Below are positions 24,248 to 40,787 of a stretch of DNA of 64,000 nucleotides, piece after piece (position 1 is the first letter of the stretch; each line of letters begins with the position of its first letter). The DNA is from Myxococcales bacterium. GTDB lineage: Bacteria; Myxococcota_A; Polyangia; Palsa-1104. Position numbers and translations under genes: made by a program. The stretch spans positions 22,279-86,278 of the forward strand of contig JAYUBF010000332.1 of assembly GCA_043741435.1 (NCBI GenBank), written 5' to 3'. The notes beneath the pieces are model-generated. The model searched no databases. It was given only the letters and a program-made list of their open reading frames with translations, and had not been told where the DNA came from.

Positions 24248-25513
24248 GTGGCAGCGGGCGGCAACGATCCGCTCGTCGGCAAGGTCCTCGCCGATCGCTT
24301 CGAGATCCTCGAGCGCGTCGGCGACGGTGGCACGGGCGTCGTCTATCGCGCCAAGCAACTCTCGGTCGACCGCATCATCGCCGTGAAGGTCCTCGGCGCC
24401 CATGTCTCCACCGACCCTCAGTGGATGAAGCGCTTCCAGAACGAAGCGCGCGCCGCTTGCAAGCTCGAGCATCCCAACACCGTCCGCGTGCTCGACTTCG
24501 GGCAGACACGAGAGGGGCTGCTCTTCATCGCCATGGAGTACCTGCACGGTCGATCGCTGCGCGCGGAGATCGAGCGCTCGGGGCGCATGCAGCCCGTGCG
24601 CGTGTTGCAGATCGTCTCGCAGATCAGCGCGTCGCTCGCCGAGGCGCACATGATGGGGATCATCCATCGAGACATCAAGCCGGACAACGTGTTCCTCGTG
24701 GACATGAAGGGCGGTGGTGACATGGTGAAGGTGCTCGACTTCTCCGTCGCCAAGAGTGACTCACCCGACGCACAGCTCACGCGCGTCGGCGTGGTGTTCG
24801 GCACGCCCGCATACATGAGCCCCGAGCAAGGGCGCGGGATTCCGCTCGGGCCAGCGTCGGATCTCTACGCGGTCGGCATCGTCGCCTACGAGATGCTGAC
24901 GGGACGTCCTCCATTCCAAGCCACCATCCCCACCGAGGTGGTGATGATGCACCTGCGCAATGCGCCGCCGCCGATGCAGGGCGTACCACCAGCGCTGGCG
25001 AGCCTGGTGATGCGCACGCTCGAGAAGGACCCGAAGCGTCGTCCGCAATCGGCGACCGAGCTCGAGCAGCTGTCACAACAAGTGATGACAGAGCTCGGCG
25101 GCTACGGAAGCGGGAATCGCGTCGCTACGCCGCCACCTCGCTCTGCCGTCAGCAGCTCCGATCCGTATCTGCAATCGCATCCGCGAACGCAGGCGTTGCC
25201 TCCGCCGGGCGCGCCCGTGCTGATGGGCGACCGCGTGCTGCCTTCGGGCCATCCGGGCGGAACGATGGTCTTGCCCGAAGGTGGCTTGCCCGCGGGCACC
25301 GCTGGTCTGCCGCACAGCATTCCGTCGGGGAACTGGAACCAGCAGCAGCAGGTCGCTCAAGGCTTCAACGGTGCCGAGGACATCACTTTCGCCGGCCAGA
25401 CCAGCCTCCCGCCGGCACCCGCTGGCGCGCTCTTCTGGCTCGCGTGGATCCTGCTCGGCATCGGAGGTGGGCTCGCTGCTCACTTCTTCGTTCCGCATCG
25501 ACCTTTTTTCTGA
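24248..25513 (+). CDS. Hanks-type Ser/Thr protein kinase with a C-terminal TM anchor
   Basis: GxGxxG loop (GDGGTGVVY), VAVK, HRDIKPDN, the DFS variant of DFG (VLDFSVA) and APE (SPEQ). A C-terminal hydrophobic helix (ALFWLAWILLGIGGGLAA) follows. I called a GTG start at 24248 that overlaps the TAG stop of the upstream lipoprotein gene (TAGGGTG); the annotated ORF begins at 24170. Confidence 0.85.
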   Translation: MAAGGNDPLVGKVLADRFEILERVGDGGTGVVYRAKQLSVDRIIAVKVLGAHVSTDPQWMKRFQNEARAACKLEHPNTVRVLDFGQTREGLLFIAMEYLHGRSLRAEIERSGRMQPVRVLQIVSQISASLAEAHMMGIIHRDIKPDNVFLVDMKGGGDMVKVLDFSVAKSDSPDAQLTRVGVVFGTPAYMSPEQGRGIPLGPASDLYAVGIVAYEMLTGRPPFQATIPTEVVMMHLRNAPPPMQGVPPALASLVMRTLEKDPKRRPQSATELEQLSQQVMTELGGYGSGNRVATPPPRSAVSSSDPYLQSHPRTQALPPPGAPVLMGDRVLPSGHPGGTMVLPEGGLPAGTAGLPHSIPSGNWNQQQQVAQGFNGAEDITFAGQTSLPPAPAGALFWLAWILLGIGGGLAAHFFVPHRPFF

Positions 25514-27036: not shown

Positions 27037-27774
27037 ATGCCCATCGCCCTCGAGAGTGCTGGTAAGACCGACGTAGGGCTGGTGCGGGAGAAGAACGAAG
27101 ACGCGATGTTGCTCGAGCCGGCGTACGGGCTCTACGTCGTGTGCGACGGCATGGGCGGCCACGTCGGTGGTCAGGTCGCGAGCCAGCTCGCCGTCGCCAC
27201 CATGTCCGAGGTCGTGCGCACCAAGAATCCGGCCCCCACCGAGGACGACACCGACATCTTGGTCACGGCGATCCGTGCCGCGAACAACGCCGTGTTCGGG
27301 AAGGCCAAGGCCGAGCCCGCTCTGCACAACATGGGCACCACCGTCGTGGCGCTGCGGGGTGAAGGCAACTTCATGCACGTGTGCCACGTGGGAGACAGCC
27401 GCATCTACCGGCTGCGCCAGGGCAACTTCGAGCAGATCACGCGCGACCACTCGCTCATCAACCTCTACGAAGAGAACCCCGAGCTGGCGATTCGCTTCGG
27501 TCCGCCGAACGCGAACGTCATCGTGCGCGCGGTGGGCCTGCGCGACGGCGTCGAAGTGGATCACCGCAAGATCTCCCTCGAGGCCGGCGACATCTTCTTG
27601 CTGTGCTGCGACGGCCTCACCGACATGGTCGACGACTGGATGCTGAAGGAGATGCTCCTCGACGGCTCCAATGGCTCGCTCGACGAGTGCTGCGACACGA
27701 TGGTGCGCGCTGCCCTGACCAATGGCGGCGTGGACAACACCACGGTGGTCTTGGTCCGCGTCTCGGAAGTCTAG
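27037..27774 (+). CDS. PP2C-family Ser/Thr protein phosphatase
   Basis: PP2C motifs GKTDVGLVREKNED, VCDGMGGH, GTTVV, VGDSR and CCDGLTD. Confidence 0.85.
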   Translation: MPIALESAGKTDVGLVREKNEDAMLLEPAYGLYVVCDGMGGHVGGQVASQLAVATMSEVVRTKNPAPTEDDTDILVTAIRAANNAVFGKAKAEPALHNMGTTVVALRGEGNFMHVCHVGDSRIYRLRQGNFEQITRDHSLINLYEENPELAIRFGPPNANVIVRAVGLRDGVEVDHRKISLEAGDIFLLCCDGLTDMVDDWMLKEMLLDGSNGSLDECCDTMVRAALTNGGVDNTTVVLVRVSEV

Positions 27775-27776: not shown

Positions 27777-28205
27777 TCAACAGCTCTTGCGCAGCGTGGC
27801 CGCCTGAGTGAACGCGGCGAACGAATCTGCGTAGCGACGTGTCCGCGCGCGCAACCGGGCAATGCGCAGCCACAGCTCGGGGCCAGCACCAGGCAAGGTG
27901 GCGGCCTCGGTGAGTGAGGTGTCGGCGCCGGGAAAATCACCGCTCAAGATCTGCGCTTCACCGAGCGCCTCGAGGAGGATGCGGCGCCGTCGCCCGCGCG
28001 GCGACTGGCCGAGGCCTCCGCGCAGCGTGGTGGTGGCACGCGGTGGATCGTCGCGCAGCTGCACCATCGCGAGGCCGATCCGCGCCTCGAGGAAGCTCGG
28101 GCACAGCTCGACCGCGGCAGAGAACGCCTCGCGCGCGGCTGGCGCATCACCCCGGAGGCGTGCTTCGCGTCCGCGCAGGAAGTAGCGACGAGCGACCGCG
28201 CTCAC
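27777..28205 (-). CDS. TPR-repeat protein
   Basis: Helical repeats with a TPR-like pattern (A..Y...G......A...F..A). Confidence 0.5.
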   Translation of the reverse strand: MSAVARRYFLRGREARLRGDAPAAREAFSAAVELCPSFLEARIGLAMVQLRDDPPRATTTLRGGLGQSPRGRRRRILLEALGEAQILSGDFPGADTSLTEAATLPGAGPELWLRIARLRARTRRYADSFAAFTQAATLRKSC

Positions 28206-28209: not shown

Positions 28210-28677
28210 CTAGTCTACTTCCAGCAGGGAGAAGCGCGTGCCGGTGTCCGATGGGCTCGGCTCTTCCTTGGCCTGCGCGGCAGGCGCAGCCGCTTGCGGT
28301 GCAGCAACGGGCGGCTGCGGCATGGGCGCGACCACCACCGTAGTGGTTGGGAGTGCGACCGCGGCAGGACGTGCTTGTAGGCGGATGCTACGACCATCGG
28401 AACGAACGCTGACGTCGGCGCCGGTGACCTCGAAGAGCGCAAGCTCCGGACAATCGACGTGGGTCTGCAACCAGACCATGAGTTCTGGAAATGCCATGCC
28501 CTCGATGTCGGTGCGCGCATCGAGCACGTTGCCTGCCGAGGACAAGGGTTGCGAGCCCTCGACGACGTATTCCTTGAACACGAGCGCGAGCACCTCGGCG
28601 AGCGAGTCACGCGAAAAGCTATCGAGCGCGCGCCGGATGTCCGTGAGGGCGCGACGAATCTGTTGTGGATCGTTCAT
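28210..28677 (-). CDS. hypothetical protein
   Basis: ORF packed between the TPR and pentapeptide genes, with a C-terminal Pro/Ala-rich tail. Confidence 0.45.
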   Translation of the reverse strand: MNDPQQIRRALTDIRRALDSFSRDSLAEVLALVFKEYVVEGSQPLSSAGNVLDARTDIEGMAFPELMVWLQTHVDCPELALFEVTGADVSVRSDGRSIRLQARPAAVALPTTTVVVAPMPQPPVAAPQAAAPAAQAKEEPSPSDTGTRFSLLEVD

Positions 28678-29390
28678 TCGGTTCTCCCCGCGAGGGCACC
28701 TTCGCGCTGGTCACGCAGCGCATCGGGTAAATCGGCGCCGATGGTTTGGCAGCCGACCAGCCGAGCACCAGTGGCTTCTGCTCCGGTGAGGGTAGCGCCC
28801 GAAAGATCGCAGCGCACGAACAACGCGCCGGCGAGGTCGGCGCGGTACAGATTGGCTCCGGACAGGTTGCAATCGATGAGCACGGCTCCGCTCAGCTTGG
28901 CGCGTGTCAGCTCGACGGCGGTGTTCGGCCGTGGGTCGGAGAAGCGGCAGCGGATCAGCGTGGCCCCGACGAGCCTGATGCCATAGAGCTGCGTCTCCAC
29001 GCAGCCGACATCGACCCATCGCGCGCCCGAGGCATCGACGTTGGCCAGCGTGCCGCGCAGAAAGGAGATGCGCTCCATGTGTGCTTCGACGAGCGACGCC
29101 TCGGTGAGGTCGGTGTCCTCGAAGCGCGCGTCCACGAGCACCGCCTCTTCGAAGCGGGCCTGCCGCAGGTCTACGCGCAGGAAGCTGGTGCGCCCGAGGT
29201 CGGCACGCGCGAAGTGGGACCCGGACAGGGCCATGCGCTCGAAGCGCGTGTCGTCGAGCACGGCAGGGGCCATGCGAAGCCCGGCGCAGTCGAAGCCCTG
29301 CACCGCTCGACCGCGAAGACCGCCTTCCTCGAGCAGGATCCGGACCTGCTCGCGACTCTCGATCACCGTGGCCGGCGGAACGGCGGTCAT
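28674..29390 (-). CDS. pentapeptide-repeat protein
   Basis: Long run of A(D/N)LxG/A(N/D)LSG pentapeptide units (ANLYRADLAGALFVRCDLSGATLTGAEATGARLVG). Confidence 0.75.
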   Translation of the reverse strand: MTAVPPATVIESREQVRILLEEGGLRGRAVQGFDCAGLRMAPAVLDDTRFERMALSGSHFARADLGRTSFLRVDLRQARFEEAVLVDARFEDTDLTEASLVEAHMERISFLRGTLANVDASGARWVDVGCVETQLYGIRLVGATLIRCRFSDPRPNTAVELTRAKLSGAVLIDCNLSGANLYRADLAGALFVRCDLSGATLTGAEATGARLVGCQTIGADLPDALRDQREGALAGRTE

Positions 29391-29408
29391 GGGCTCCTCA
29401 TGCGGAGG

Positions 29409-30041
29409 TCACCTGTCGTCGAACCCGAGGAGGTCCGCGTCGAGGCGACGGGCGTCGGCCACTTTCTCGAGGACCCGAAGCAAGATCTTCTCTCGGCGCT
29501 TTTCCGGATCGGCTGCCTTGGGTGCGTCGCCACCTTGGTCGCCCGCGAGCGACTTCGCTTCCGCATGCTCGGCTTCGCGCTCGTGTGCGGCGCCTTGACC
29601 ACCCTGCTCGAGCGCGAAGTTCATACCGCTCTGCGCTTGCTTGACGTGGGTGAGCTCGTGAGCGAGGAGCGCTCGACCTTCGCGCGTCTTGAGGTTCGTG
29701 CGAGGCGTGTCGCGCAACAGCACGAGGCCGGTACTTCCGACGGTGACAGCGTCGGCGCGATGACGACGGGTCACGCGCTCGGCGAAAGAGCCGCGGATGA
29801 TTCGGACGTCGCCGAAGTTGCCGCCAAGCTGCTTCTCCATGCGTTGGCGCGTGTCGGCATCGAGCTTCTCCGAATGGCCAGCACCGGACGCGGTGATGTG
29901 GCCCAGGCGTGACGCGTCGTAGCGGCGCGCCACGTCAGTGGCCAACGATTCGAGCTGGGCCTCTTCCCGCGCGGCGAGGCGAGTGCGCTCGTCGGCACTG
30001 AGGTTGAGATCGTCGAGAGACTTCGGATCGTCAGTCGCCAT
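29409..30041 (-). CDS. DUF4157-family protein (putative Zn-metallopeptidase-like; HExxH-like HELTHVKQ)
   Basis: Central motif ALLAHELTHVKQAQSG, matching my recollection of the DUF4157 signature (HEL.HV.Q). Start at the ATG at 30039-30041; the ORF track starts at an upstream TTG. Confidence 0.6.
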   Translation of the reverse strand: MATDDPKSLDDLNLSADERTRLAAREEAQLESLATDVARRYDASRLGHITASGAGHSEKLDADTRQRMEKQLGGNFGDVRIIRGSFAERVTRRHRADAVTVGSTGLVLLRDTPRTNLKTREGRALLAHELTHVKQAQSGMNFALEQGGQGAAHEREAEHAEAKSLAGDQGGDAPKAADPEKRREKILLRVLEKVADARRLDADLLGFDDR

Positions 30042-30137
30042 GTGTTGCAGGCACCTCGACAAAAAGCATAGCCCGGGTCCTGGCTTTCGAAAAGCACGTG
30101 GTCGATTGGTCTCCCAGGTGAACGACTACTCGGAGAC

Positions 30138-30545
30138 TTACTTGTCGAGCTCCTGGGTCATCATGTCCCAGCCCGTATACGACTGGCCGTCATGGGTTGC
30201 GGTGCCGACGCCCGCCTTGAAGGTGAAGGTGGTGGCGGTGCCGCGGACGATCTGCAGCGTCTTCATCTGACACACGGCCTTCTTCGAGGCGGCGTCATTA
30301 CAGTAAGCGGCCGGGCCAGAGGCGACGCTCTCGGCGACGTGTTTTACCTGGTAGAGATCGTCGTTGTTCTTGGTGGTGCTCTCGGTCACCGTGATCTTGA
30401 GCGCACATCCGCACGCGGCCTTGAACTTGGTCTCGGCATCTTTCACGGCCGGCTCCACGTCGCTCTTCATGTACTCCCGCTCGGCCTTACCAGCCAATGC
30501 GGTGATGGAAAGAAACAACGATGCGGTGACGAACAAGCGCTTCAT
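30138..30545 (-). CDS. small secreted protein (signal peptide, 4 Cys)
   Basis: Signal peptide MKRLFVTASLFLSITALAG. Local GC is clearly below the window average. Confidence 0.5.
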   Translation of the reverse strand: MKRLFVTASLFLSITALAGKAEREYMKSDVEPAVKDAETKFKAACGCALKITVTESTTKNNDDLYQVKHVAESVASGPAAYCNDAASKKAVCQMKTLQIVRGTATTFTFKAGVGTATHDGQSYTGWDMMTQELDK

Positions 30546-31009
30546 GGATGCTCCTTGGTATCGGGGTGGATGGCTTTGACGATATCGTCGACTCGAAATT
30601 TATCGGAGGCGGTTTCAGAGTAGGTGAGCTCGAACTCGGTCGACGACTTCGGCTGGAAGAACGTCCAGCGGTTGTCGCGGGCGGCCAGCAGGACCGTTCT
30701 ATACGGCTTGCTGCCGCGCTTGTGATCGAGATAGGCGTTCTTCGTCCCGTGCCCGAGGTCTTCGTACGAGTAACGCAGGGTTTTGCCTTCGAGCTCCCCA
30801 CCGAGATTCTTCAAGTAGACGAGAATCTCTTTGCCCTCGTTGATCTCGAGCATGACGACGACCTGGCCTTCAGGCCCTTTGAACGCTTTGAGCGGCCCCG
30901 AAGGCGTGACCTTGGCACCGAAGGTGGTGGTGATCCGATCGTCTGCCCGTGACTGTAGCGCGGGCGCCACACACAAGACGACCAAGGTCACGAACAGCAG
31001 CGAACGCAT
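30542..31009 (-). CDS. small secreted protein
   Basis: Signal peptide MRSLLFVTLVVLCVAPALQSRA. The ATG overlaps the TGA stop of the upstream gene (TGATG), so the two genes appear translationally coupled. The annotated ORF extends to a TTG at 31063. Confidence 0.5.
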   Translation of the reverse strand: MRSLLFVTLVVLCVAPALQSRADDRITTTFGAKVTPSGPLKAFKGPEGQVVVMLEINEGKEILVYLKNLGGELEGKTLRYSYEDLGHGTKNAYLDHKRGSKPYRTVLLAARDNRWTFFQPKSSTEFELTYSETASDKFRVDDIVKAIHPDTKEHP

Positions 31010-31614
31010 CAACGCCCCTTCCCGCACGATTTTACGACGTTCTCTTCCATCAACACCTCGCAAGCATTTTTACTCAGGTAGGCGTCGGGTCTATCTTTCT
31101 CTTCGAGGAAGTCAGCGCGGAATTCTTTGTCCTTCAGACATTGCTTGACGACGTTCTTCGCTTTCGCGTAGTTCGACGAAGGGTTCGTGTTCTTGGGATG
31201 CGACAGCGTCTTGGTAAGGACCTCGTAGGCGGCGAGCTCGTTGCAGCCGCTCAGCGCGTGACCGACGAGCACTGCGACCAAGGCGACCGAGTTTTCCGGC
31301 GCGCTGAGCCGCTTGACCGAGCCGATGAAGTCGAGGTCGGTGGCCTTGCTCTTCAGCGGCTCGAGCACGGCCACAGCCCTTTCGATGCAGCGCATCTGAA
31401 GCTCTACCTGTCCGAGGAGCCGGGTCTGATCACCGGTTTCGGTCTTGGTGCTCTCCACCAGGTGATCCATTTGCAGGCACTTCTCGAACCCCTCCAGGGT
31501 TTTGAAGGCAAACAAGTCGGCCCGAGCGATCGCAGGCGACAAAAGGACCGTCACGAAGGCGAGCGCTGTGGGCCCTACGAAACGCGTCCGGAAGCTTGGC
31601 ACAGTCATCTCCAT
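31009..31614 (-). CDS. secreted protein (signal peptide, 6 Cys)
   Basis: Signal peptide ...ALAFVTVLLSPAIARA. Lower-GC region. Confidence 0.5.
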   Translation of the reverse strand: MEMTVPSFRTRFVGPTALAFVTVLLSPAIARADLFAFKTLEGFEKCLQMDHLVESTKTETGDQTRLLGQVELQMRCIERAVAVLEPLKSKATDLDFIGSVKRLSAPENSVALVAVLVGHALSGCNELAAYEVLTKTLSHPKNTNPSSNYAKAKNVVKQCLKDKEFRADFLEEKDRPDAYLSKNACEVLMEENVVKSCGKGR

Positions 31615-31805
31615 GTCTCTCGATGGGCGAGGTGATCGAAGCTAGCTGGCGATCATATCTTAGTCTCCGTGACATTTCACTCAGCGGCGGAGACGGTTGA
31701 GCGGTGGCAATTTCATTCGCCGCTGCAGCCGACGTCCGCGACCAAGCATCTCAAGACGTTGCGTTGTTCTAACGTGGCCCGCTTCGTGCTCGCCACGGAT
31801 GCTCG

Positions 31806-32309
31806 ATGCGAATCGCGGTTGTGCTGGTGCTTGGGTTGAGGATGGTGGGCGCGGCCAATGCGGGTCCCGCCGATGTATTGCCGATGCGGGCCCGCGCGCT
31901 GCTCACGCAACGTCCGGATCGGGACGGGCCGAATTGTCTCAACGCGGTCGAGCTGTACCATGGGCTCGCCCGGGCCCAACGCTGGACCGCTTGGCGTGTG
32001 CTGGACCGCAAGCTCCGCACGGCGAATCGGTTCCGCGAGATGCGCGCCAACGAACTATCACAGCTCGGCGACGTGATCCTGTACCGCCACGGACCGCTCG
32101 ACTTGATCGAGCATGGCGCAATCTTCGTCGACTCTCTTCACGTGTGGGAAAAGGCAAACGCCGACGCGACGAGCACCTGGCAGTTCACGTCGCACGAAGC
32201 TTCCGCGGCGCCTTATGGCTACACCATCGTGCAACGCTGGCGCAGGCTCGACGCGCGCCGCCAAAGGCCTGACCTCGACGGCAAACAGCTGCTACCGACC
32301 GGGCCGTAG
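31806..32309 (+). CDS. secreted hypothetical protein
   Basis: Signal peptide MRIAVVLVLGLRMVGAANA. It is the only plus-strand ORF in this block. Confidence 0.4.
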   Translation: MRIAVVLVLGLRMVGAANAGPADVLPMRARALLTQRPDRDGPNCLNAVELYHGLARAQRWTAWRVLDRKLRTANRFREMRANELSQLGDVILYRHGPLDLIEHGAIFVDSLHVWEKANADATSTWQFTSHEASAAPYGYTIVQRWRRLDARRQRPDLDGKQLLPTGP

Positions 32310-32358
32310 CTCGGCTTTAGTTCGCCAACGAATTTGAGTGATCGCGACGGCGGACGCG

Positions 32359-32568
32359 TTACCGCCCGGTTTTCTGCGTGTTGCCGATGTCCGTGTTGTT
32401 CTCGTAGTACTCGGGTAGGAGCTCGCGGGCCTGGACCTTGTTGCCGAGGGCTTCCTCGAGGAACTTGGTGTCGTCGACGCAGGTGGTGCCATCGCCGCAC
32501 TTCACGCGCACGGAGACGTTGCCGTCGGGGCCGATGGTGATCTCGAGCTCTTTCTTCTTGGCCGACAT
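32359..32568 (-). CDS. DUF2997-family small protein
   Basis: 69 aa: MSAKKKELEITIGPDGNVSVRVKCGDGTTCVDDTKFLEEALG. This matches the DUF2997 pattern (E I T I . P D G . V . V . V . G . . G . . C . . . T . . L E . . L G). Confidence 0.6.
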   Translation of the reverse strand: MSAKKKELEITIGPDGNVSVRVKCGDGTTCVDDTKFLEEALGNKVQARELLPEYYENNTDIGNTQKTGR

Positions 32569-32580
32569 GGTCTGTTCCTC

Positions 32581-32976
32581 CTAACCCCACTTCGAGACGT
32601 TGAGCTTGACCGTGCCGTCCTTCTGTACCGCGTTCTCATCGATGGTGTAGCCGGCGTCTTCCACCGCGGCCACCACCTTCTGATACGCGTATTTCGAATT
32701 GATCTCCTTCGCGATCTCCTGCTCCGTCGCTCCGCGGGTGGTCTCTATTCCCCACCAATCGGCGACGAGCTCGTAGCCGCCGTTCTCGGCTTTCACGACG
32801 GCGACGTCGTACTTGCCCATGTCGATGGCGATCTCGGCCTGCATCGTCGCGCCCTTCCAGCCGCGAACCGTGACGCCGGCTTCCTCGTGCTTGTACTTCC
32901 AGCCGAGCGCATCGAGCGCCTTTTTGAGGCACACGAGGTCGGTTATCTGCGTTTGGACTTTGGTGAAGTGCGACAT
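32581..32976 (-). CDS. DUF1257 (Ycf35-like) family protein
   Basis: 131 aa beginning MSHFTKVQTQITDLVCLKKALDALGW, the hallmark DUF1257 N-terminus. It lies 4 bp downstream of the AAA gene. Confidence 0.6.
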   Translation of the reverse strand: MSHFTKVQTQITDLVCLKKALDALGWKYKHEEAGVTVRGWKGATMQAEIAIDMGKYDVAVVKAENGGYELVADWWGIETTRGATEQEIAKEINSKYAYQKVVAAVEDAGYTIDENAVQKDGTVKLNVSKWG

Positions 32977-32979
32977 GTT

Positions 32980-34524
32980 CTAGACCTCGAGCTTTCGTTC
33001 CGGCGCAGCGAAGCGATCACCCTTGGGCTTCGCCTCCGTCGAGAACGACGCGCTGCGCGCGCGGGTCTTGGCCCACTCGCGCATGGTGTCGATACCTTCC
33101 TTCATCGTTACGGCGAGCGGTACGATCTCGCGCGCTGCCGCGAGCAACCCCTCGGGCGTGACGTCGCGCTCCGCATCGAACGCGTCGTACAGCGCCGAGA
33201 TGACGGCCTGCTCGATCTCGGCGCCCGAGAACTCCGGCATGGCTTCGACGACCTTGGCGATGTCGAGCGTCTCCGGATCACGCTTCTTCTTGCGCAAGTG
33301 GATGTCGAGGATGCTCTTGCGCTCGTCGCGCGTCGGTAGATCGACGAAGAAGATCTCGTCGAAGCGACCTTTGCGCAGGAGCTCGGGCGGCAGCGCACGA
33401 ACGTCGTTCGCGGTGGCGATTACGAACACGGGTGCCGTCTTCTCCTGCATCCACGTGATGAACGTACCGAACACGCGCGACGTGGTGCCGCCGTCGGACA
33501 TGTTCGAGCTCCCGGTGCCGGAGAAACCCTTCTCGATCTCGTCGAGCCAGAGGACCGCCGGCGCGATGGCCTCGGCGGTCTTCAGCGCCTTGCGGATATT
33601 CTCCTCTGAAGCACCGACCAGGCCGCCCATGATTTTGCCCACGTCGAGGCGCAGGAGCGGCATCTGCCACGCAGCCCCGACGGCCTTCGCGGTGAGCGAC
33701 TTGCCGCAGCCGGGCACGCCGATGAGGAGGATCCCCTTCGGCAACGGGAGGCCGAAGTCGCGGGCCTTCTGCGTGAAGGCGCCGCGCCGCTTCTGCAGCC
33801 AGGTCTTCAGCGTCTCGAGCCCACCGATCTCGTCGAGCGACTCGGCGGTCTCGTAGTACTCGAGGATGCCGCTCTTGCGGATGATGTGCTTCTTCTCCTC
33901 CAGCACCGTTCCGATGTCGAAGGTCTTGCAGCGCACGATCGACTTCGCGAAGACGTTCTCCGCCTCGATGTACGTGAGACCCAGCGCGGCCTCGACGAGG
34001 CGCTCGCGGCCACTCGGGTCCGAGGCCATGCCAGGGTCCACGCCCGTAGGCAGCTCGCTGAGCAGCTTGCCGATGATGCCGTCGATCTCCGCGCGATCCG
34101 GCAGGTCCCAGTCGACGATCGCGACCTCCTTCTCGAGCTCCGGCGGCATCTTCAGCACGGGCGAGAGGAACAGCACGCTCTTCTGCGACTTCTTGAGATC
34201 GTGGCCGAGATCGCGCAGCTTGCGCACGACCTGAGCGTTGTCGAGGAACGCGTGGAAGTCGCGCAGGATGTAGAGGCCTTTGCCCTCGGCACCGGCGATG
34301 TGATCGAGCGCCTTCAGCGGATCTTTCACGTCGCCGCCACGATGCTCTCCGGCAAGCTGCACGAACCCGCGCGTGATCGACCACGCCACGAGCCGTCGCT
34401 CACGCCGGAGGGCGAAGTCGCGCAGCATGCGCTCCACCCGCTGCTCCTCCGACGACACGATATAGACGAGCGGATATCGCGCCTTGACCAGATCTTCGAC
34501 TTCCGTCGTGCTCGGTATCGCCAT
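32980..34524 (-). CDS. AAA+ ATPase with a single classical AAA domain and an N-terminal domain of about 230 aa (Ycf46-like architecture)
   Basis: Walker A GILLIGVPGCGKSLTAKAV, Walker B VLWLDEIEKGF, sensor-1 (VIATAN) and an Arg finger region (RKGRFDEIFFVDLP). Confidence 0.85.
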   Translation of the reverse strand: MAIPSTTEVEDLVKARYPLVYIVSSEEQRVERMLRDFALRRERRLVAWSITRGFVQLAGEHRGGDVKDPLKALDHIAGAEGKGLYILRDFHAFLDNAQVVRKLRDLGHDLKKSQKSVLFLSPVLKMPPELEKEVAIVDWDLPDRAEIDGIIGKLLSELPTGVDPGMASDPSGRERLVEAALGLTYIEAENVFAKSIVRCKTFDIGTVLEEKKHIIRKSGILEYYETAESLDEIGGLETLKTWLQKRRGAFTQKARDFGLPLPKGILLIGVPGCGKSLTAKAVGAAWQMPLLRLDVGKIMGGLVGASEENIRKALKTAEAIAPAVLWLDEIEKGFSGTGSSNMSDGGTTSRVFGTFITWMQEKTAPVFVIATANDVRALPPELLRKGRFDEIFFVDLPTRDERKSILDIHLRKKKRDPETLDIAKVVEAMPEFSGAEIEQAVISALYDAFDAERDVTPEGLLAAAREIVPLAVTMKEGIDTMREWAKTRARSASFSTEAKPKGDRFAAPERKLEV

Positions 34525-34561: not shown

Positions 34562-36526
34562 TCAGACCACTTCGCGCAGCGTGCGCAGGACGTTCTTTGC
34601 TTCTTCGGTTCGCTCTACGGAAGCGGTGATCGCGTCCTTGAGCGAGCGGGTGGCTTCGCCGTCGGCGCCCAACTCTTCGACGAGTCGCTGCGCGAGCAGC
34701 ACGTGGGTGCGCAGCTCGGACAGGGCATCGTTCACGCCATCGTGCGCAGCTTCCGCCCGTCGCTGGATCTCGGCGATTCCAGCGGTCCCGTTGGTCGGCG
34801 CGCTGGCTTCGAGCTCGGCCCTGGCGATCGCGAGATCGGACCCCAGCAACGACAGCTCTTCTTCGAGCTCGCGGATCCGGATCTCGGCGGGCGCCGCGTG
34901 GCGTCGGCCATCTTCGCCGCCACCCCACGTGGACTCCTCGAGGTCGCCGCTGATGGGTCCCGTCGGGAGATCACTGCCGGTGGCGGCTTCGAGCAGATCA
35001 CCCGACAGCGTGACCTGCTCGCCGCGCTGACCGGTCGGCTTCGCCGCATCGGAGCGCTTGCGCGCGAGGTCGGCGTCCTTGCGCGCTTCGATGGCTTCTT
35101 GGCTGGCCTGCATCGCGCGCTGGTTCGCTTCGTCGAGCTCGCGACGCAGCTGCGCGATCTCGCCCATCAGGCGACCGGACGTGTCCTCGAGCATGCGTCG
35201 AGAATCTTCCGAAGCTTGACGCTGCAGCTCGGCGCGTTGCAGTGCTTCTTCGGCGCGTTCACGGGCGGAGATGGCGCGCTGCTTCTCCTCGAGCGCGTGC
35301 GTTCGCTCGACGTCGAGGTTGGCCACCTTCTGCTCCGCCAACGTGCGCGCCGCATCGGCTCGCTCGGCGCGCTCGAGCAACCGATCGCGCTCCGCCTCGA
35401 GGGTCTTCTGCGCGACGCGCGCTTGTCGCAGATCGCTCGCCAGCTGCAGCGCCTCTTCCGCGGTGCCACCGGTGCCGTCTGCCACTTTGCGCTGCAGACG
35501 TCGGTGCTCTTCGTCGAGCCCCTCGAGCTGGTTGCGCATCGCGACGAGTTGTTGCTTGGCATCGTCACGCTCGGTGCGCGTGATGACGAGCTCGCGCAGC
35601 GTGCGTTCTTTCTCTTGTCGCAGCTCTTGCGCCGATGATTCGAGCGCGATGAGGCCCACGCGACGCTCTTCCAACAGGCGCTCTTGCTCGGAGATGACGG
35701 CGCGCAGCCCGTCGAGCTCACCCGCGCGATTGTTGAGCTCGCGCCAGCCCGCGTCCTTGGTGCGCTCGAGCTCGACCAAGCGACCACGCGCCTCGTCGAG
35801 CGTGTGCTTGGTCCGCTGCACGTCCTCGAGAGAGCGCTCGAGCTGGCGATCACGTGCTTGCAGATCACCCGACGCCTTGTCGTGGCGATCACGCAGCTCG
35901 ATATGTTCCTTGCGGAGGCTGTCGATGTCCGTGCGGAGCTGCTCCGACACCCGCAGCGTGGCGTTGAGCTCCTCGTCGGTGCTCTGACGGATGCGCGACA
36001 GCTCGCTGAACTTGTCGCGTTGGATCGCGACCTCCGCACGCAGGCGTTGCAGCTCCGCACTGTCCGTCTCGCTGCGCGAACGCAGCGCGTCGAGCTCGCG
36101 ACCGAGGTCGAAGAGCTGTTGCTCCTTCGCGGATCGGTCGGCGAGCACCGACTCGAGCTCGCGCCGCGCCAGGTCGAGCTCACCCGACTCCTCCATGAGG
36201 CCCGGGTCCACGGCGATGCGGCTCGACGGCTTGTCATCGATGATGACGAAGCGGACCTGAAGCGTGCCGCAGCGCACGATGTCCGCGTGGCGCAGCTGCT
36301 GCTTCTGCACGCGCTGATCGTTCACGAAGGTGCCGTTCGAGCTCCCCAGGTCTTCGACGAACCAAGCGCCGCTTTCGAGCCACAGCCGATAGTTGCGGCG
36401 CGATACCATCGCGTCATCGGTCCGGACCACGCACTCCTGCGCTCGTCCCACGAAGGAGCCTTCCGGCTGCACGTCCGCGGACGCGTCCCTGCCTTGCGCA
36501 TCGCGGTAGAGCAACCGACCCTTCAT
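34562..36526 (-). CDS. FHA-domain protein with a very long coiled-coil (SMC/myosin-tail-like) C-terminal region
   Basis: N-terminal FHA domain (FVGRAQECVVRTDDAMVSRRNYRLWLESGAWFVEDLGSSNGTFVND). About 500 aa of heptad-like sequence rich in E, R, L and A follows. Confidence 0.75.
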   Translation of the reverse strand: MKGRLLYRDAQGRDASADVQPEGSFVGRAQECVVRTDDAMVSRRNYRLWLESGAWFVEDLGSSNGTFVNDQRVQKQQLRHADIVRCGTLQVRFVIIDDKPSSRIAVDPGLMEESGELDLARRELESVLADRSAKEQQLFDLGRELDALRSRSETDSAELQRLRAEVAIQRDKFSELSRIRQSTDEELNATLRVSEQLRTDIDSLRKEHIELRDRHDKASGDLQARDRQLERSLEDVQRTKHTLDEARGRLVELERTKDAGWRELNNRAGELDGLRAVISEQERLLEERRVGLIALESSAQELRQEKERTLRELVITRTERDDAKQQLVAMRNQLEGLDEEHRRLQRKVADGTGGTAEEALQLASDLRQARVAQKTLEAERDRLLERAERADAARTLAEQKVANLDVERTHALEEKQRAISARERAEEALQRAELQRQASEDSRRMLEDTSGRLMGEIAQLRRELDEANQRAMQASQEAIEARKDADLARKRSDAAKPTGQRGEQVTLSGDLLEAATGSDLPTGPISGDLEESTWGGGEDGRRHAAPAEIRIRELEEELSLLGSDLAIARAELEASAPTNGTAGIAEIQRRAEAAHDGVNDALSELRTHVLLAQRLVEELGADGEATRSLKDAITASVERTEEAKNVLRTLREVV

Positions 36527-36593: not shown

Positions 36594-37175
36594 TTAGCCC
36601 TTGAACAGTGCTTCGCTGGTGCCGATGCGGATGATGTCGCCCGCGACGAGCTTGCGGCGCGCGCTCTTTTCGCCGTTCACATAGACGCCGTTGGTGGAAC
36701 CGAGGTCGGCGAGCTCGTAGCCGCCATCGACCCGGCGAATGCCCGCGTGCTTGCGCGACACACCGGTGTCTTTGAGCAGCACCGAGTTGCCTTCGAAGCT
36801 GCCGATCGTGGTGACGTCCGCGTCGAGGAAGAAGTTTTGTCCGGCGAGGGGGCCGGTACGGAACTCGATCGCGGCCCGACCCGAGGAAACGGCGGCCGCC
36901 GGCGTCGCCACCCGTGCGCCGTTCGTCGCGGGTGCCGCGCTCGAGCGCGCGCTACCGCAGGCGGGACAGAGGCGCCAGCTGGCCTGCACCCCGCCACCGC
37001 ACGTCGGGCACGCGCCTCTCTGCGCGCGACGACGATTCGAGACCACGGCCATGCGTAGGATGAACAAGGCCATCACCACGACCGCGGCGACCACGGCGGC
37101 AAGAAACCATCGTGGCGGCGGCTCGGCCACCACGGCGACCTCGTCGGCCATCGAGAGGAGCAGCAAGGCGATCAC
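36594..37175 (-). CDS. membrane protein with a zinc-ribbon and a C-terminal FHA domain
   Basis: TM helix (AAVVAAVVVMALFIL), then a Cys4 ribbon (CPTCGGG...CPACG), then an FHA domain (ADLGSTNGVYVNGE). Confidence 0.7.
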   Translation of the reverse strand: MIALLLLSMADEVAVVAEPPPRWFLAAVVAAVVVMALFILRMAVVSNRRRAQRGACPTCGGGVQASWRLCPACGSARSSAAPATNGARVATPAAAVSSGRAAIEFRTGPLAGQNFFLDADVTTIGSFEGNSVLLKDTGVSRKHAGIRRVDGGYELADLGSTNGVYVNGEKSARRKLVAGDIIRIGTSEALFKG

Positions 37176-37181: not shown

Positions 37182-38612
37182 CTACTGCACCACCGACTTG
37201 AACTTGAACTCGCTCCGACCGAGAACGATGCGGTCGTTGTCGACGAGCTCGTGCTCGCGCACCTTCTTCTCGTTCACCACCATGCCGTTGGTGGATCCGA
37301 GATCGATCAACCGGAAGCGCTGACCGTCGCGCCTCACCTCGGCGTGGCGCGACGAGGCGAAGGAGTCGTCGATGACGACGTCGCAATCGGGCGCGGTGCC
37401 GATGATGGTGCGGCCGCCTTGGTTGAGCGAAAACGTCTTGTCGACGTTTCGGCCGCTGAGCACGACCAACCAACCGACGGCTTGCACCTTGCCACCCCCG
37501 GCCCCACCCATCGCCATCGTGCGCGACGGTGCGCCCGCGGGCTGTGGCGCCGGCGCTGCGAACTGCATGGGCTGTTCATCGCGCTCGCGGAAGATGAGCC
37601 ACACGATGAGCATCACCAGCAGCACCCCACCGCCGATGCAGAGCGCCCACAGCCACCAGCGACGCGCCTGCACCTTGGTGACGACGAGATGCGTCGCCGG
37701 CGGGACGGAACGAATGTAGTTATTGGACGAAGCGATGTGTCCCCCCGCCTCGGCCGAGATCTGGAACGTATGGAACTTGCCGTCGCCGCCCGCGATGCCG
37801 AGCTCGTACGTCGCGATGTATTGCTTGCGCAGCTCGTCGGCCACGTTCTGGAACTCCGTGGTGACCTCGTTGCTGCTCTTGCATGTGCGCTCGCCGCCGT
37901 TCGATTGCTTGGTGAGCTCGGTGAGGTTGCGCAGGCGGGCCGGCTCGAACGGTGCGTAGCCGATGGTGTCGATGACGATGCCGCCATCGACGGCGCGCAT
38001 CGCGACGGATTTGTAGGTCTTCCTCTCCATGTTGACGTCGATACCATCGGAGAAGAGCACGATGAGCTTGCGCTGATCTTTCGGCGCGGCGTTGAGCAGA
38101 TCGATGGAGGTTCGCAGCGCATCGAGCAGGTGGACCTCGACGAGCTCGGTGTCGGTCTGCAGCTGGTTGGCGGCGGCCTCTGCATCGGCGGGCGGACCCA
38201 GCTCGGCAAGGCGCTTCGTCTCGGCGGAGAAGCCGAGCAAGGCCATCTTGGACTTGGCTGGAAGTGCGTTCGCCAACATCTTCACGCCCTTCTTGATGTC
38301 GTCGGAGACCTCGAGCATGGCCTGTGACACCTGCACCACGACGACGAGGTTCACTGGCTCGTTCGAGGCATCGAAGACCTGTAGATCTCTCGCTGCACCC
38401 TGCTCCGCCGAATCGAGGATGAGCTTGAACTCCTCCTTCGCGCGCCCGGAGATCAAACGCCCATCACCGTCGGTGAGCGTGAGGTACGCCTTCATGGTGG
38501 GCGAGCGTGTCAGGTCGATGCGCTCGAGGCGCAGCTTGTCTGCCGCGAGCGCGGGTGCGCAAAGAGCCAGGGATGAAAGAACAACGGCGATGCACGCCGA
38601 GCGCAGGGTCAT
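37182..38612 (-). CDS. secreted/membrane vWA-domain protein with a TM helix and a C-terminal cytoplasmic FHA domain
   Basis: Signal peptide; a vWA-like domain whose MIDAS-like motif is partly degenerate (VVVQVSQAM...LFSDGIDV); a TM helix (WWLWALCIGGGVLLVMLIVWLIF); and an FHA domain (IDLGSTNGMVVNEKKV). Confidence 0.75.
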   Translation of the reverse strand: MTLRSACIAVVLSSLALCAPALAADKLRLERIDLTRSPTMKAYLTLTDGDGRLISGRAKEEFKLILDSAEQGAARDLQVFDASNEPVNLVVVVQVSQAMLEVSDDIKKGVKMLANALPAKSKMALLGFSAETKRLAELGPPADAEAAANQLQTDTELVEVHLLDALRTSIDLLNAAPKDQRKLIVLFSDGIDVNMERKTYKSVAMRAVDGGIVIDTIGYAPFEPARLRNLTELTKQSNGGERTCKSSNEVTTEFQNVADELRKQYIATYELGIAGGDGKFHTFQISAEAGGHIASSNNYIRSVPPATHLVVTKVQARRWWLWALCIGGGVLLVMLIVWLIFRERDEQPMQFAAPAPQPAGAPSRTMAMGGAGGGKVQAVGWLVVLSGRNVDKTFSLNQGGRTIIGTAPDCDVVIDDSFASSRHAEVRRDGQRFRLIDLGSTNGMVVNEKKVREHELVDNDRIVLGRSEFKFKSVVQ

Positions 38613-39427
38613 GTCGATTTGAATTTGAAGGACGTGCGTCCCAGTCGGAGCGTATCACCGTCGACCAGATCGGACTGGGTCACGCGCTTGTCATTGACGA
38701 AGGTTCCGTTCGTGGAGCCGAGGTCGCTGACGCGAAACACGCCGGCTTGCGCGCTGAACTCCGCATGACGGCCGCTGACCGACGAGTCGCTGACCAGCAC
38801 GTCGCAATCCGGCGCGGTCCCCACGACGGAGCGGGCCCGCAGCTCGAGCAGCTGCCCTCCTTGCGGACCGTCGAGCGGGATGATCCAGGCGACGAGGCGA
38901 GAGGCCGACGACCCACCGTGCGCGACGCCGCCACCACCGCTGTCGATGTCCATGGTGCGGGGCTTGTTACCGCCACCGCCGTAGTTGCTACCGCCGTGGC
39001 CGACATCGAGCGATTCGGTGCGGGGCGATGCACCGCCCGCTGGCTGGCCACCGTTGTCGACCTGGTTGCCGAAGCCGCAGTAGGGGCACAGCTCCCAACG
39101 CGCATCGAGCTTCTCGTTGCAGTTGGGACAGCGCTTCTTCTTCGAGAAGAGGCCCATCTTCTTGTTGTTCGCTCCTGGTTGAGGCGCCGTGCCGCCTCTG
39201 TTCTTCAGCTGGCCCGCTTGGTTCGCGAGCTGCTTCGCCTGATGCCCGTATTGCTGCATCTGCTGCTTGTTGTACTGGAGCTCGCTGCGAAGTTCGTTGG
39301 GCAGCTGACGTACGCGGTTGATGTTGCCGCGAATTTGTCCTTCGAAGTTGCGCACGCTCGATGTCTTGCCGCGCATGAAGTCCAGCGGCGCGCGCAAAGT
39401 GCGCAAGAGATCGTCGAAGAACGACAT
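38609..39427 (-). CDS. zinc-ribbon plus FHA domain protein with a Gly-rich linker
   Basis: Cys4 ribbon (CPNCNEKLDARWELCPYCG), then an FHA domain (GRHAEFSAQAGVFRVSDLGSTNGTFVNDKRV). The gene overlaps the next gene by 4 bp. Confidence 0.7.
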   Translation of the reverse strand: MSFFDDLLRTLRAPLDFMRGKTSSVRNFEGQIRGNINRVRQLPNELRSELQYNKQQMQQYGHQAKQLANQAGQLKNRGGTAPQPGANNKKMGLFSKKKRCPNCNEKLDARWELCPYCGFGNQVDNGGQPAGGASPRTESLDVGHGGSNYGGGGNKPRTMDIDSGGGGVAHGGSSASRLVAWIIPLDGPQGGQLLELRARSVVGTAPDCDVLVSDSSVSGRHAEFSAQAGVFRVSDLGSTNGTFVNDKRVTQSDLVDGDTLRLGRTSFKFKST

Positions 39428-39506: not shown

Positions 39507-40787
39507 TTACTGCTTGAGCTGCACGACCTCTTGCAGCATCTGGTCAGCCGTCGAGACGGTCTTGGCGTTGGCGGAGAAGGCGCGCTGGTAGGCGATGAGC
39601 GTGACGAGCTCGTTGCCGATGTCCACGTTCGACTGCTCGAGCGAGCTGCCGACGATGCCACCGCGCGAGCCGGTCGCCGCGGCGTCAACCAGGGCCTGGC
39701 CCGAGACTTGGGTCTCCGAGAACAGCTGCGAGCCCGAGCGCTGCAGGCCCTTCTCGCTGGCGAACGTCGCGAGGGCGACGCGCACGATGGGCCGGCTCTG
39801 ACCGTTCGAGAACTGACCGGTGATGGTGCCGTCGCTGGAGACGTTCACGCTGGCAAGGTCGCCCGAGCCGTAGCCGTCCTGGTCGAGCTTCTTCACGGTG
39901 TTCGGCGCGGAGAACTGCGTCGAGCCGTTGAGCCCGGTGCCGCCCGCGGCGATATCGTCGCCGAAGCTGAAGGCGATGGCTTGGTTCGCCGTTGCACCCA
40001 CGAAGCTGGCGGACGAGGCGACGGTGGTCTGCGCGGTGAGCGCACCTGCGGTGTTGAAGGTGGCCGTGCCGTTCGCGATCTCGGTGGGCACGCCCGCGGT
40101 TCCACCGGCGAGCTCTCCACCGTCGACCATCGCGTGCCACTCCCAGGCGCCGGCGCCGTTGTCGCGGAAGAACACGTCGGCGCGGTGCGCGGTGCCGAGC
40201 GAGTCGTACACCGTGGCCGACGTCGAGTAGTTCGACGTGCCGCTCGGGTTCGCAGCGCTCCAAGCGGCCGGCGGTATCGACGAGGAGTCGAGGTTCACCG
40301 ACAGGTCGAGCTTGGTGGTGGGGTTCGGCGAGCTCTGGCCACCGATGACGAGGTCGCCCACGGCTTGCGACGGCTTGCCGGTCGCGTCGATGGTGTAGCC
40401 CTGCACCTTTAGGCCCTGGCCGTTGACGAGCGTGCCCTTGTTGTCGAGCTTGAACTGGCCGTCACGCGTGTAGTAGCTGCCGTCGACGCCGTTGTGGTTG
40501 CCCTTCACGACGAAGAAGCCGTTGCCCTGCACGGCCATGTCGAGCGGTTGGCCGGTGTTGGTGATGGTGCCCTGGCCGAACAGCGTGTCGGGGCCGGTCA
40601 TGCGCGAGCCTTGTCCGAGGTTCTGTCCGTTGCTCGCGGCGCCGCCGATCATGTCTTCGAACACTGCGCGGTTCTGTTTGAAGCCGACGGTGGACGCGTT
40701 GGCGATGTCGTCGCCGACGATTCCGATCGCGTCACCATGCGCAGCGAGACCGTTGGCACCCGTGTACAGCGAGCTGAAGATGGACAT
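39507..40787 (-). CDS. flgE: flagellar hook protein FlgE
   Basis: N-terminal Flg_bb_rod motif (IANASTVGFK), the central FlgE hook domain and the C-terminal Flg_bbr_C (VDIGNELVTLIAYQRAFSANAKTVST). Confidence 0.9.
   Translation of the reverse strand: MSIFSSLYTGANGLAAHGDAIGIVGDDIANASTVGFKQNRAVFEDMIGGAASNGQNLGQGSRMTGPDTLFGQGTITNTGQPLDMAVQGNGFFVVKGNHNGVDGSYYTRDGQFKLDNKGTLVNGQGLKVQGYTIDATGKPSQAVGDLVIGGQSSPNPTTKLDLSVNLDSSSIPPAAWSAANPSGTSNYSTSATVYDSLGTAHRADVFFRDNGAGAWEWHAMVDGGELAGGTAGVPTEIANGTATFNTAGALTAQTTVASSASFVGATANQAIAFSFGDDIAAGGTGLNGSTQFSAPNTVKKLDQDGYGSGDLASVNVSSDGTITGQFSNGQSRPIVRVALATFASEKGLQRSGSQLFSETQVSGQALVDAAATGSRGGIVGSSLEQSNVDIGNELVTLIAYQRAFSANAKTVSTADQMLQEVVQLKQ

Follow-up and report, generated by a model that had tools for sequence, protein, structure and literature searches.

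The 64,000-nucleotide stretch of contig JAYUBF010000332.1 of a Myxococcales bacterium that we analyzed (hereafter the window) carries three adjacent minus-strand open reading frames (ORFs), at 32359..34524, that encode an AAA ATPase, a protein of the DUF1257/Ycf35 family, and a DUF2997 mini-protein. We tentatively interpret this triad, with a confidence that falls somewhat short of even, as a phospho-regulated unfoldase and its adaptor, which would be an inherited accessory part of the contractile injection system (CIS) locus of Myxococcota and would handle CIS cargo. The tandem AAA+ ATPase (32980..34524, minus strand, 514 aa) matched Pfam family AAA (PF00004, 6.1e-30, residues 265–395 in the Pfam scan). 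The 131-aa protein (32581..32976, minus strand), which begins MSHFTKVQTQITD...LKKALDALG, matched DUF1257 (PF06868, 4.9e-21; 75.3 bits, cut-off 22.2; profile positions 1–102 of 103), and the 69-aa protein (32359..32568, minus strand), which contains EITIGPDGNVSVRVKCGDGTTCVDDTKFLEEALG, matched DUF2997 (PF11211, 3.3e-14; 52.9 bits, cut-off 24.1). Gaps of only 3 and 12 nt separate the genes, and promoter and terminator scans around the triad returned nothing interpretable above shuffled expectation. An initial annotation, made from the letters of this DNA, had named the triad at exactly these coordinates from peptide strings of the two small proteins. We found both strings in their ORFs, and all three proteins exceeded the Pfam cut-offs, including the two small-protein models on which that annotation depended. 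Its equation of DUF1257 with the Ycf35 family also agrees with the N-terminal MSH hallmark, an invariant motif described for Ycf35/DUF1257 (PMC13060386), and its statement that the molecular function of the module has been demonstrated in no organism still holds.

The CIS interpretation draws on gene neighborhoods of relatives, which were surveyed as sampled loci (L numbers) rather than exhaustively, with ORFs taken from six-frame calling plus hidden Markov model (HMM) or BLAST searches, a neighbor-joining tree, and 10-kb flanks for L096–L099. ORF clustering in Kofleriaceae and Myxococcales revealed a fixed order of three FHA genes, an FHA-coiled-coil gene, AAA, DUF1257, DUF2997, DUF4157, a pentapeptide-repeat gene, a gene for a conserved 155-aa protein (o155), and a TPR gene. 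Relatives whose ATPases share 68–84% identity with that of the window have this block within a CIS locus. In L096, L097, L098, and L099, with ATPases 68–80% identical to that of the window, the FHA series is directly preceded, in the same orientation, by genes for Baseplate_J (3e-23), Tail_P2_I (5e-15), and a conserved protein of ~520 aa; the 5′ edges of L095, L010, L011, and L017 likewise carry the ~520-aa gene. In total, eight Myxococcota loci had CIS-linked genes upstream of FHA, with baseplate genes in four and the ~520-aa gene in all eight. The 10-kb views showed the TPR gene followed by a PP2C gene (L096, L097, and L099) and then by a Ser/Thr kinase gene (L099), while DUF2997 was followed in L096, L097, and L010 by an Afp15-like ATPase of 693–713 aa composed of a winged-helix domain (WHD) and two AAA domains. 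Outside Myxococcota, the triad of L004 (DUF1257 47% identical) stands immediately before Pvc16_N, a sheath gene, and three tube genes. The Treponema succinifaciens plasmid pTRESU01 (L093, 1–17619) has gp25, Baseplate_J, sheath, tube, DUF1257, Tail_P2_I-like, gpV, M23 peptidase, SH3, gpV, and PAAR genes in this order, and the ATPase of this plasmid is found 54 kb from the CIS operon, beside another gpV and a 4Fe-4S protein. In the neighbor-joining tree, the clade of the window ATPase contained all CIS-embedded copies; all of its members had the small proteins and the pentapeptide protein, and most kept o155 and DUF4157, while solo ATPases and those of cyanobacterial plasmids fell outside it.

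These partners are familiar from extracellular CIS (eCIS). Surveys of eCIS loci count AAA and DUF4157 among the core domains and the pentapeptide repeat among the shell domains, DUF4157 is an eCIS core and cargo marker (PMC8213781; PROCIS preprint), and the Myxococcus xanthus eCIS has the order MXAN_4488 (DUF4157), x, MXAN_4491 (pentapeptide), afp16. In AlgoCIS, the AAA+ protein Alg15 is required for loading DUF4157-bearing cargo into the eCIS tube (PROCIS preprint). We found no paper in the searchable literature that connects DUF1257, DUF2997, or Ycf46 with CIS.

The anatomy of the ATPase points to a remodeling machine. Residues 229–454 aligned with the D2 domain of Cdc48 (1e-27), which was also the best match among solved structures (3e-50), and the D2 region (residues about 229–500) belongs to the classic clade of AAA proteins with a full catalytic motif set, comprising Walker A (GVPGCGKS), Walker B (LWLDEIEK), sensor-1 with its Asn (ATAN), and a second region of homology (SRH) with its Arg residues (LLRKGRFDE). 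These motifs were invariant across six phylum-spanning ATPase sequences, and identity between phyla was 55–60%, N-domain included. Residues 1–228 had no Pfam match and no sequence match among solved structures; this D1 region has an AAA fold matching Vps4 and p97, with no P-loop/Walker A. Since D1 lacks any P-loop, the ATPase is, to judge from its residues, a degenerate, nucleotide-dead AAA D1 stacked on an active classic-clade D2. The pore loop reads G-L-V-G, with L-V at the position of W-Y in Cdc48 when aligned to Cdc48 D1 and D2, and the C-terminus ends in ERKLEV (full end peptide ...DRFAAPERKLEV). The ATPase thus resembles Cdc48/p97, Vps4, and PAN in its D2, which is about 35–40% similar to Cdc48 D2 with all motifs, in its Vps4/p97-like D1 fold, and in a C-terminal tail that brings to mind the HbYX tails found on PAN/Rpt subunits. 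It differs from these proteins in the D1 without a P-loop, the Leu-Val pore loop, the R-x-L-E-hydrophobic tail, and the fact that no protease partner is encoded. The label 'SpoVK/Ycf46/Vps4' that Joint Genome Institute (JGI) annotation gives to homologues of this ATPase is a generic COG name.

The two small proteins are strongly conserved. The DUF1257 protein has MSHF at residues 1–4, as do about 95% of family members, and its 131 aa are within the family range of about 120–135 aa; S2, H3, F4, D73, W74, W75, G76, and Y96 are invariant, the first two in 67 and in 149 sequences. An AlphaFold2 (AF2) model (mean per-residue confidence, pLDDT, 81) has an alpha+beta fold. A role as an Ntn-hydrolase-like protease, considered for the invariant N-terminal Ser-His, found no support: the modeled alpha+beta fold is small and TBP/KA1-like, and none of its matches were hydrolases. 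Homologues of DUF2997 collected from the loci share the motif I.I.pDG.V...vkG.kG..C...t..LE.aLG....T.E[YF]Y, with its LE..LG and T.E[YF]Y elements, and the Cys is conserved in 42/42 of them; in the window protein this family-wide residue is Cys30, and Cys24 is specific to the lineage. The gene order AAA-DUF1257-DUF2997 is repeated in Polyangia, Bradymonadia, Thermodesulfobacteriota, and unnamed phyla. An IMG/VR viral contig encodes, directly upstream of the ATPase, a natural 193-aa fusion (L100:5179-5760) that starts with MSHITTVK and consists of DUF1257 (residues 1–116) and DUF2997 (residues 129–180); this fusion suggests that the two proteins may act together as one unit. Another protein in the representative library, P0270 (331 aa), begins with an extension resembling a targeting peptide, after which come two tandem DUF1257 domains, each preceded by (H/M)SHF; it may be a nuclear-encoded eukaryotic derivative of Ycf35.

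ATPases linked to these partners end in R-x-[LI]-[ED]-hydrophobic, as ERKLEV in the window and as ERKLEL, RRLEM, FRNLELGD, or RQLDL elsewhere, with RGGRTIDF in the radical-SAM type described below. The motif was present in 28/44 partner-linked but only 2/29 solo ATPases (Fisher p = 7e-7, for a motif defined post hoc and in a test without phylogeny correction). The tails of o155 proteins (RFSLLE[VLF]D, RFKRLEVD, GFRGLEFD) resemble that of the ATPase, and pentapeptide-o155 fusions in L008 and L019 end in KRF[RK]KL[DE]MD. The o155 of the window ends in ...TRFSLLEVD, similar to the ATPase end peptide given above, and its gene is directly followed by the TPR gene; TPR domains recognize the EEVD tails of Hsp70 and Hsp90, which these tails and the TPR gene recall.

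In the window, the triad is embedded in the same series of genes. The 654-aa FHA and long coiled-coil protein (34562..36526, minus strand, FHA 2.6e-15) is encoded immediately upstream of the ATPase, across a 37-nt gap, a position kept in 16 loci plus L095–L099. It is preceded by three further minus-strand genes with Pfam-assigned domains, encoding a hydrophobic segment with Zn-ribbon and FHA (36594..37175), a signal-like N-terminus with VWA, hydrophobic segment, and FHA (37182..38612), and a Zn-ribbon with FHA (38609..39427); signal-like, signal-peptide-like, and hydrophobic segments, here and in the insert ORFs below, were read by eye from translations. The same FHA series stands upstream of the ATPase in Myxococcota relatives. 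On the other side of the triad, the DUF4157/eCIS_core protein (29409..30062, minus strand, PF13699 3.3e-19, HExxH motif AHELTH) carries its domain at residues 67–146 behind a hydrophilic N-terminal stretch, which is the architecture of CIS cargo, and its gene directly follows DUF2997 in L012–L017, L027, L095, and L099. In the window, four small lineage-specific ORFs with signal-peptide-like N-termini (30138..30545, 30542..31063, and 31009..31614 on the minus strand; 31806..32309 on the plus strand) separate the two genes, at a position where relatives have nothing or an Afp15-like ATPase and effectors. These ORFs had no Pfam matches, and their homologues were found only in L001, the Logan contig of the same organism.

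The minus-strand series continues with the pentapeptide-repeat gene (28674..29390, Pfam 5.2e-28), which is present in 16 loci and accompanies the triad in every member of the window ATPase clade, and with o155 (28210..28677), which matched no Pfam family and has homologues in at least 11 loci. The co-directional series ends with a small TPR gene (27777..28205, TPR_2 1.2e-9), conserved in L012, L015, L017, L027, L095–L097, and L099. On the plus strand follow a PP2C-type Ser/Thr phosphatase gene (27037..27774, PP2C_2 2.2e-15), found at the same position in L095, L096, L097, and L099, and a Ser/Thr protein kinase gene (24170..25513, Pkinase 1.5e-46), syntenic in L095 and L099; a PEGA protein gene (21158..22231) is also part of this accessory/regulatory block. 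At the level of domains, the kinase, the PP2C, and four FHA proteins in one conserved block would provide what T6SS-like threonine phosphorylation control calls for (T6SS, type VI secretion system). The adjacent DUF4157/eCIS_core and pentapeptide genes (28674..30062) are arranged as in the M. xanthus eCIS, as expected of a CIS accessory part.

Taken together, we propose that the ATPase would assemble into a hexameric protein-unfolding or remodeling ring, with a dead D1 on an active D2, and that DUF1257-DUF2997 would be an adaptor that docks on the ATPase by binding its C-terminal R-x-[LI]-[ED]-hydrophobic tail; o155, with its similar tail, may dock on DUF1257-DUF2997 likewise. The ATPase would then thread a client through its pore. 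The neighboring DUF4157 protein is the best candidate for this client, because it has the cargo layout of AlgoCIS and Alg15 is needed for such loading. The CIS locus would be gated by Ser/Thr phosphorylation through the kinase, the PP2C, and the four FHA proteins, of which two would be membrane-anchored, following the logic of the PpkA/PppA/Fha1 pathway of type VI secretion. That threonine-phosphorylation pathway, comprising the kinase PpkA, the PP2C phosphatase PppA, and Fha1, was reportedly described by Mougous and colleagues in 2007. As in the T6SS with ClpV, a contractile-machine locus combines a Ser/Thr kinase, PP2C, FHA, and an AAA+ ATPase, here as read from the genes alone. Unlike the T6SS, there are four FHA proteins instead of one, no TssB/C-ClpV recognition domain, and baseplate genes of the phage P2/Afp type.

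Similarities to the eCIS loaders Afp15, Pvc15, and Alg15 include an AAA+ protein in CIS loci (those of the relatives), a predicted stacked-ring hexamer, and a neighboring DUF4157 cargo-type protein, and in L004 it is the ATPase of the triad that fills the slot beside afp16/Pvc16_N. However, the canonical loader of L096, L097, and L010 is a separate gene of 693–713 aa with a WHD and two P-loop AAA domains, whereas the triad ATPase has 514 aa and a P-loop-less D1, and its two small partners are absent from canonical eCIS loci. The triad ATPase is therefore no orthologue of Afp15/Pvc15, a type that these loci encode as a separate gene with another architecture. Given that L096 and L097 also retain the canonical Afp15-like ATPase, the task of the triad ATPase may not be cargo loading but a different one, which counts against our proposal. 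One such activity would be ClpV-like disassembly of contracted sheaths or baseplates, with DUF1257-DUF2997 as a sheath-recognition adaptor. Threonine phosphorylation control together with membrane-anchored FHA/VWA proteins suggests a cell-attached, re-firing, T6SS-like mode, loading could be left to the Afp15-like ATPase of L096, L097, and L010, and the Treponema DUF1257 gene lies between sheath/tube and baseplate genes. Still, we consider such a recycler quite improbable, given that the ATPase has no ClpV-type N-domain, that its D1 is a dead AAA module, that its nearest conserved neighbors are of cargo (DUF4157) and not sheath type, and that the family offers no experimental precedent.

Several further observations weigh against a role in CIS cargo handling. 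The 64-kb window contains no gene for sheath, tube, or baseplate proteins, for the ~520-aa protein, or for an Afp15-like ATPase; tblastn of the 64 kb recovered no Baseplate_J, Tail_P2_I, ~520-aa, or Afp15-like gene, and the 713-aa WHD+2xAAA protein of L096 had no homologue in the window except weak Lon matches. The ATPase of the window is therefore not within a CIS structural operon of sheath, tube, baseplate, and afp16 genes. DUF1257 occurred in only one eCIS operon in the survey of Geller et al. and was not significant there. The ATPase family is not CIS-specific, with 37 solo homologues among unrelated neighbors, and the companions of phage and Firmicute triads are a small radical-SAM gene and genes of DNA metabolism instead of tail genes. 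In the ATPase of the window, the pore loop carries aliphatic residues (L-V), not aromatic ones, and the tail association carries the limits stated with it above. The broader idea that the whole ATPase family serves as a CIS ATPase was rejected on the basis of the 37 solo homologues, which had no CIS Pfam neighbors, and the separate Afp15-like ATPase in the same loci.

Given that the window has no structural CIS genes and that FlgE (39507..40787) adjoins the first FHA gene, where relatives have CIS baseplate genes, the block of the window is the full accessory/regulatory half of the locus, detached from the CIS structural genes. In this genome it either works in trans or is a retained remnant, and a CIS role in this particular genome is one that we infer. 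FlgE is part of a full flagellar cluster (39507-63863; FlgE, FlgD, FliI, FliH, FliG, FliF, FlgC, FliD, flagellin, FlgL, FlgK, FlgI, FlgH, and FlgG), which at about 39.5–63 kb supports the earlier description of a flagellated host. Myxococcota are usually described as gliding, not flagellated. A functional flagellar link of the block was considered and judged probably positional, as L096–L099 have baseplate, not flagellar, genes at the junction. A second case of flagellar-type genes bordering the block is L098:12802-14517 (Polyangia, GCA_046351595.1), where a FHIPEP/FlhA-type export gate and an FHA-sigma54 activator come after DUF2997 and the DUF4157 series is absent. Other genes of the window include those for a sigma-54 activator, GGDEF, MgtE, RecQ, ClpB, DnaJ, and Lon. 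Between a DNA methyltransferase-like gene and clpB there is an 853-aa ORF (11745-14306, plus strand) that matched no Pfam family and has a host-like GC content at third codon positions (GC3) of 0.86.

A general stress or proteostasis chaperone, as proposed for cyanobacterial Ycf46, would make the CIS neighborhood incidental. The slr0373-slr0374-slr0376 operon and its stress induction, which the initial annotation had mentioned, are confirmed in cyanobacterial papers, where the ycf46 operon is among the most strongly stress-induced units (blue light, nutrient, and oxidative stress, in a (p)ppGpp-dependent manner). Solo homologues of the ATPase are found among housekeeping genes, and other parts of the window encode ClpB, DnaJ, and Lon. 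Nonetheless, we regard this explanation as unlikely, given that the window clade is always accompanied by the pentapeptide partner and mostly by o155 and DUF4157, that the eight Myxococcota loci have CIS-linked genes upstream of FHA, and that cyanobacterial plasmid homologues belong to a distant clade. In the Ycf46/Ycf35/DUF2997 genes of cyanobacteria and red-lineage plastids, the small proteins are of the same Pfam families as here, the MSH N-terminus of Ycf35 included, and cyanobacterial plasmids likewise link an AAA ATPase of about 500 aa with DUF1257/DUF2997. In cyanobacteria, however, a DUF2997-ycf35-fed7 cluster is conserved (PMC4284462), whereas the window, from a flagellated Myxococcota host, has FHA, kinase, PP2C, DUF4157, and pentapeptide genes as neighbors in place of fed7 or a stress operon of three genes.

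The initial annotation had also proposed lateral acquisition, based on a local GC below that of the window, and had rightly called the host high-GC (window GC 0.66). The dip is real, with GC of 0.639 for the triad, 0.653 for the AAA gene, 0.607 for DUF1257+DUF2997, and 0.603 for the neighboring insert (30063..32358), but it is smaller and differently placed than had been implied. Ranked among 47 window genes, GC3 was at the 89th percentile for AAA (0.887), the 74th for DUF1257 (0.856), and the 98th for DUF2997 (0.914), which is high and host-like, while three of the four insert ORFs (30138..32309) were at the 0–6th percentile. The low total GC of the triad is confined to codon positions 1 and 2 and therefore reflects amino-acid composition; the GC dip is explained by this composition plus the four lineage-specific ORFs inserted next door. 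Compared with the 87%-identical relative L095, dN/dS was 0.13 for AAA, 0.13 for DUF1257, and 0.32 for DUF2997, similar to the rest of the block (0.11–0.32). The labels of near-identical and 64–95%-identical homologues (Polyangia, Myxococcales, Kofleriaceae, or Haliangiales) place the host, a metagenome-assembled genome, among Polyangia-like Myxococcota. Orthologues at 64–95% identity are present throughout Polyangia, Kofleriaceae, and Haliangiales, gene order is kept across Kofleriaceae, Myxococcales, and Polyangia with synteny over about 18 kb, and the Myxococcota ATPases are monophyletic in the neighbor-joining tree, with the cyanobacterial plasmid copies in a distant clade. Conserved synteny and dN/dS of 0.13–0.32 indicate that the triad is probably vertically inherited in Myxococcota under purifying selection, and GC3, synteny, tree, and dN/dS together speak against lateral transfer, which we therefore rejected. 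That the triad is a cyanobacterial Ycf46/Ycf35 operon recently acquired by this lineage, as the GC of the two small genes (0.607 vs. 0.66) and the first naming of the families from plastids and cyanobacteria might suggest, is scarcely credible against GC3 of 0.86–0.91 (74th–98th percentile), orthologues at 64–95% identity throughout three groups, about 18 kb of conserved synteny, and the distant position of the cyanobacterial plasmid copies.

Nor is the triad unexpected outside phototrophs, as had been thought. A species-genome scan with the ATPase alignment matched more than 591 genomes, and the small proteins were present in many loci. The best 80 ATPase matches, taken further, had 44–84% identity over about 490 residues and included Myxococcota, Armatimonadota, Chloroflexota, Omnitrophota, Planctomycetota, KSB1, Nitrospinaceae, Firmicutes, Microbacterium, Gastranaerophilales, and archaea; the family is also found in Actinomycetota. 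Among the 73 loci with enough flank, DUF1257 and/or DUF2997 lay within 6 kb of the ATPase in 36 and neither did in 37. DUF1257 has 610 representatives at 50% clustering, with named members in Nitrospinota, Thermodesulfobacteriota, Myxococcota, and Bradymonadia. The triad, whole or in part, is also borne by plasmids of Pseudanabaena, Geminocystis, Bacillus thuringiensis, and Treponema; on the cyanobacterial plasmids, the ATPase lies near DUF1257 and DUF2997 and shares 47% identity over 95% of its length with that of the window, in a distant clade of the neighbor-joining tree.

Viruses carry the module as well. PHROG contains a separate family for each of the three proteins (ATPase vs. phrog_8638, 6.9e-152, full length), and IMG/VR contigs, many of 100–550 kb, yielded 209 ATPase relatives, with small proteins in 31 and both small proteins in 24 of the best 80 loci. 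A small Fer4_12/radical-SAM gene is the most frequent neighbor, both in the viral loci and in genome loci of type B. Neighbors on viral contigs (L102-L179) also include ParB, RecA, methylase, and beta-clamp genes, which suggests that viral copies may be located in a replication or early region rather than among tail genes. A second architecture (L069, L071, L073, L081, and the Pseudanabaena plasmid L089) combines radical-SAM, ATPase, DUF1257, and DUF2997 with a HEAT+WD40 protein of about 900–1050 aa and an Hsp70-like protein, and with GrpE too on the cyanobacterial plasmid. Mycobacterium phage Catdawg gp97 (L094) is a full-length ATPase homologue (35% identity over 95%) with the tail ...VRVLDL; such a homologue is present in 34 cluster-O-like mycobacteriophages, and an HMM search found no DUF1257 or DUF2997 near gp97. 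DUF1257-like ORFs in T4-like cyanophages (Prochlorococcus phages P-SSM2 and P-SSM5) and marine single-virus contigs (hits H41-H48) were weak but full-length matches, with 24–30% identity and E of 1e-6 to 4e-4.

This distribution raises the possibility of a mobile conflict module of radical-SAM, ATPase, DUF1257, and DUF2997, serving defense, counter-defense, or takeover, of which the Myxococcota copy would be a domesticated offshoot. The dedicated PHROG families, the 209 IMG/VR relatives with both small proteins in 24 of the best 80, the radical-SAM/Fer4_12 gene as the commonest viral and type-B neighbor, plasmid loci with PIN, zeta toxin, RloB, Hsp70, and GrpE, and the mycobacteriophage cluster O homologue are in line with such a module. 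However, PADLOC-DB v2 returned only generic AAA matches for the ATPase (IetA 3e-22, TRIP13) and none for DUF1257/DUF2997, and the copy of the window has no radical-SAM, Hsp70, or toxin neighbors, is vertically inherited, and shows host-like codon usage, which leaves this explanation distinctly unlikely. Membership of the triad in a known anti-phage defense system was rejected, with no specific PADLOC match.

The same neighbors could hint at redox or Fe-S/radical chemistry, in which DUF1257 and DUF2997 would jointly make up a catalytic or metal/cluster site that the ATPase feeds or resets. DUF1257 Ser2-His3 and Asp73 and the DUF2997 Cys are invariant, and 4Fe-4S partners recur, as Fed7 in cyanobacteria and as radical-SAM/Fer4_12 proteins in many phyla, plasmids, and phages. 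Yet the block contains no Fe-S gene in the window or in any Myxococcota relative, the one invariant Cys of each 69-aa protein cannot bind a cluster alone, and the predicted DUF1257 fold resembles binding modules rather than known enzymes; we consider this chemistry very improbable.

The triad itself is a known, database-annotated gene neighborhood, and what the window holds is an unremarkable copy of the block, passed on by inheritance and separated from the structural genes. What appears unreported in the searchable literature is the embedding of the triad, with a threonine-phosphorylation module, in Myxococcota CIS loci, the dead-D1 architecture, the partner-linked tail, and the fusion. To our knowledge, there is no solved structure or assay for DUF1257 and DUF2997, and ycf46 and ycf35 have been listed as conserved ORFs with no assigned function ever since the earliest plastid genomes. 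The distribution described above makes the triad a pan-prokaryotic and phage-borne module. It is conceivable, although we think it rather doubtful, that the Ycf46-like ATPase and a DUF1257-DUF2997 heterodimer form a dedicated, hitherto unrecognized unfoldase-adaptor module of a threonine-phosphorylation-gated CIS in Myxococcota, with scattered occurrences in Spirochaetota and other phyla, and that this module would recognize clients or partners via the R-x-L-E-hydrophobic tail. For CIS biology, our results point to an unreported accessory ATPase system and T6SS-like phospho-regulation in Myxococcota. If the proposal is true, plastid and cyanobacterial ycf46 and ycf35 would, by extension, descend from the same ATPase-adaptor machine, and these genes would have their first mechanistic hypothesis.

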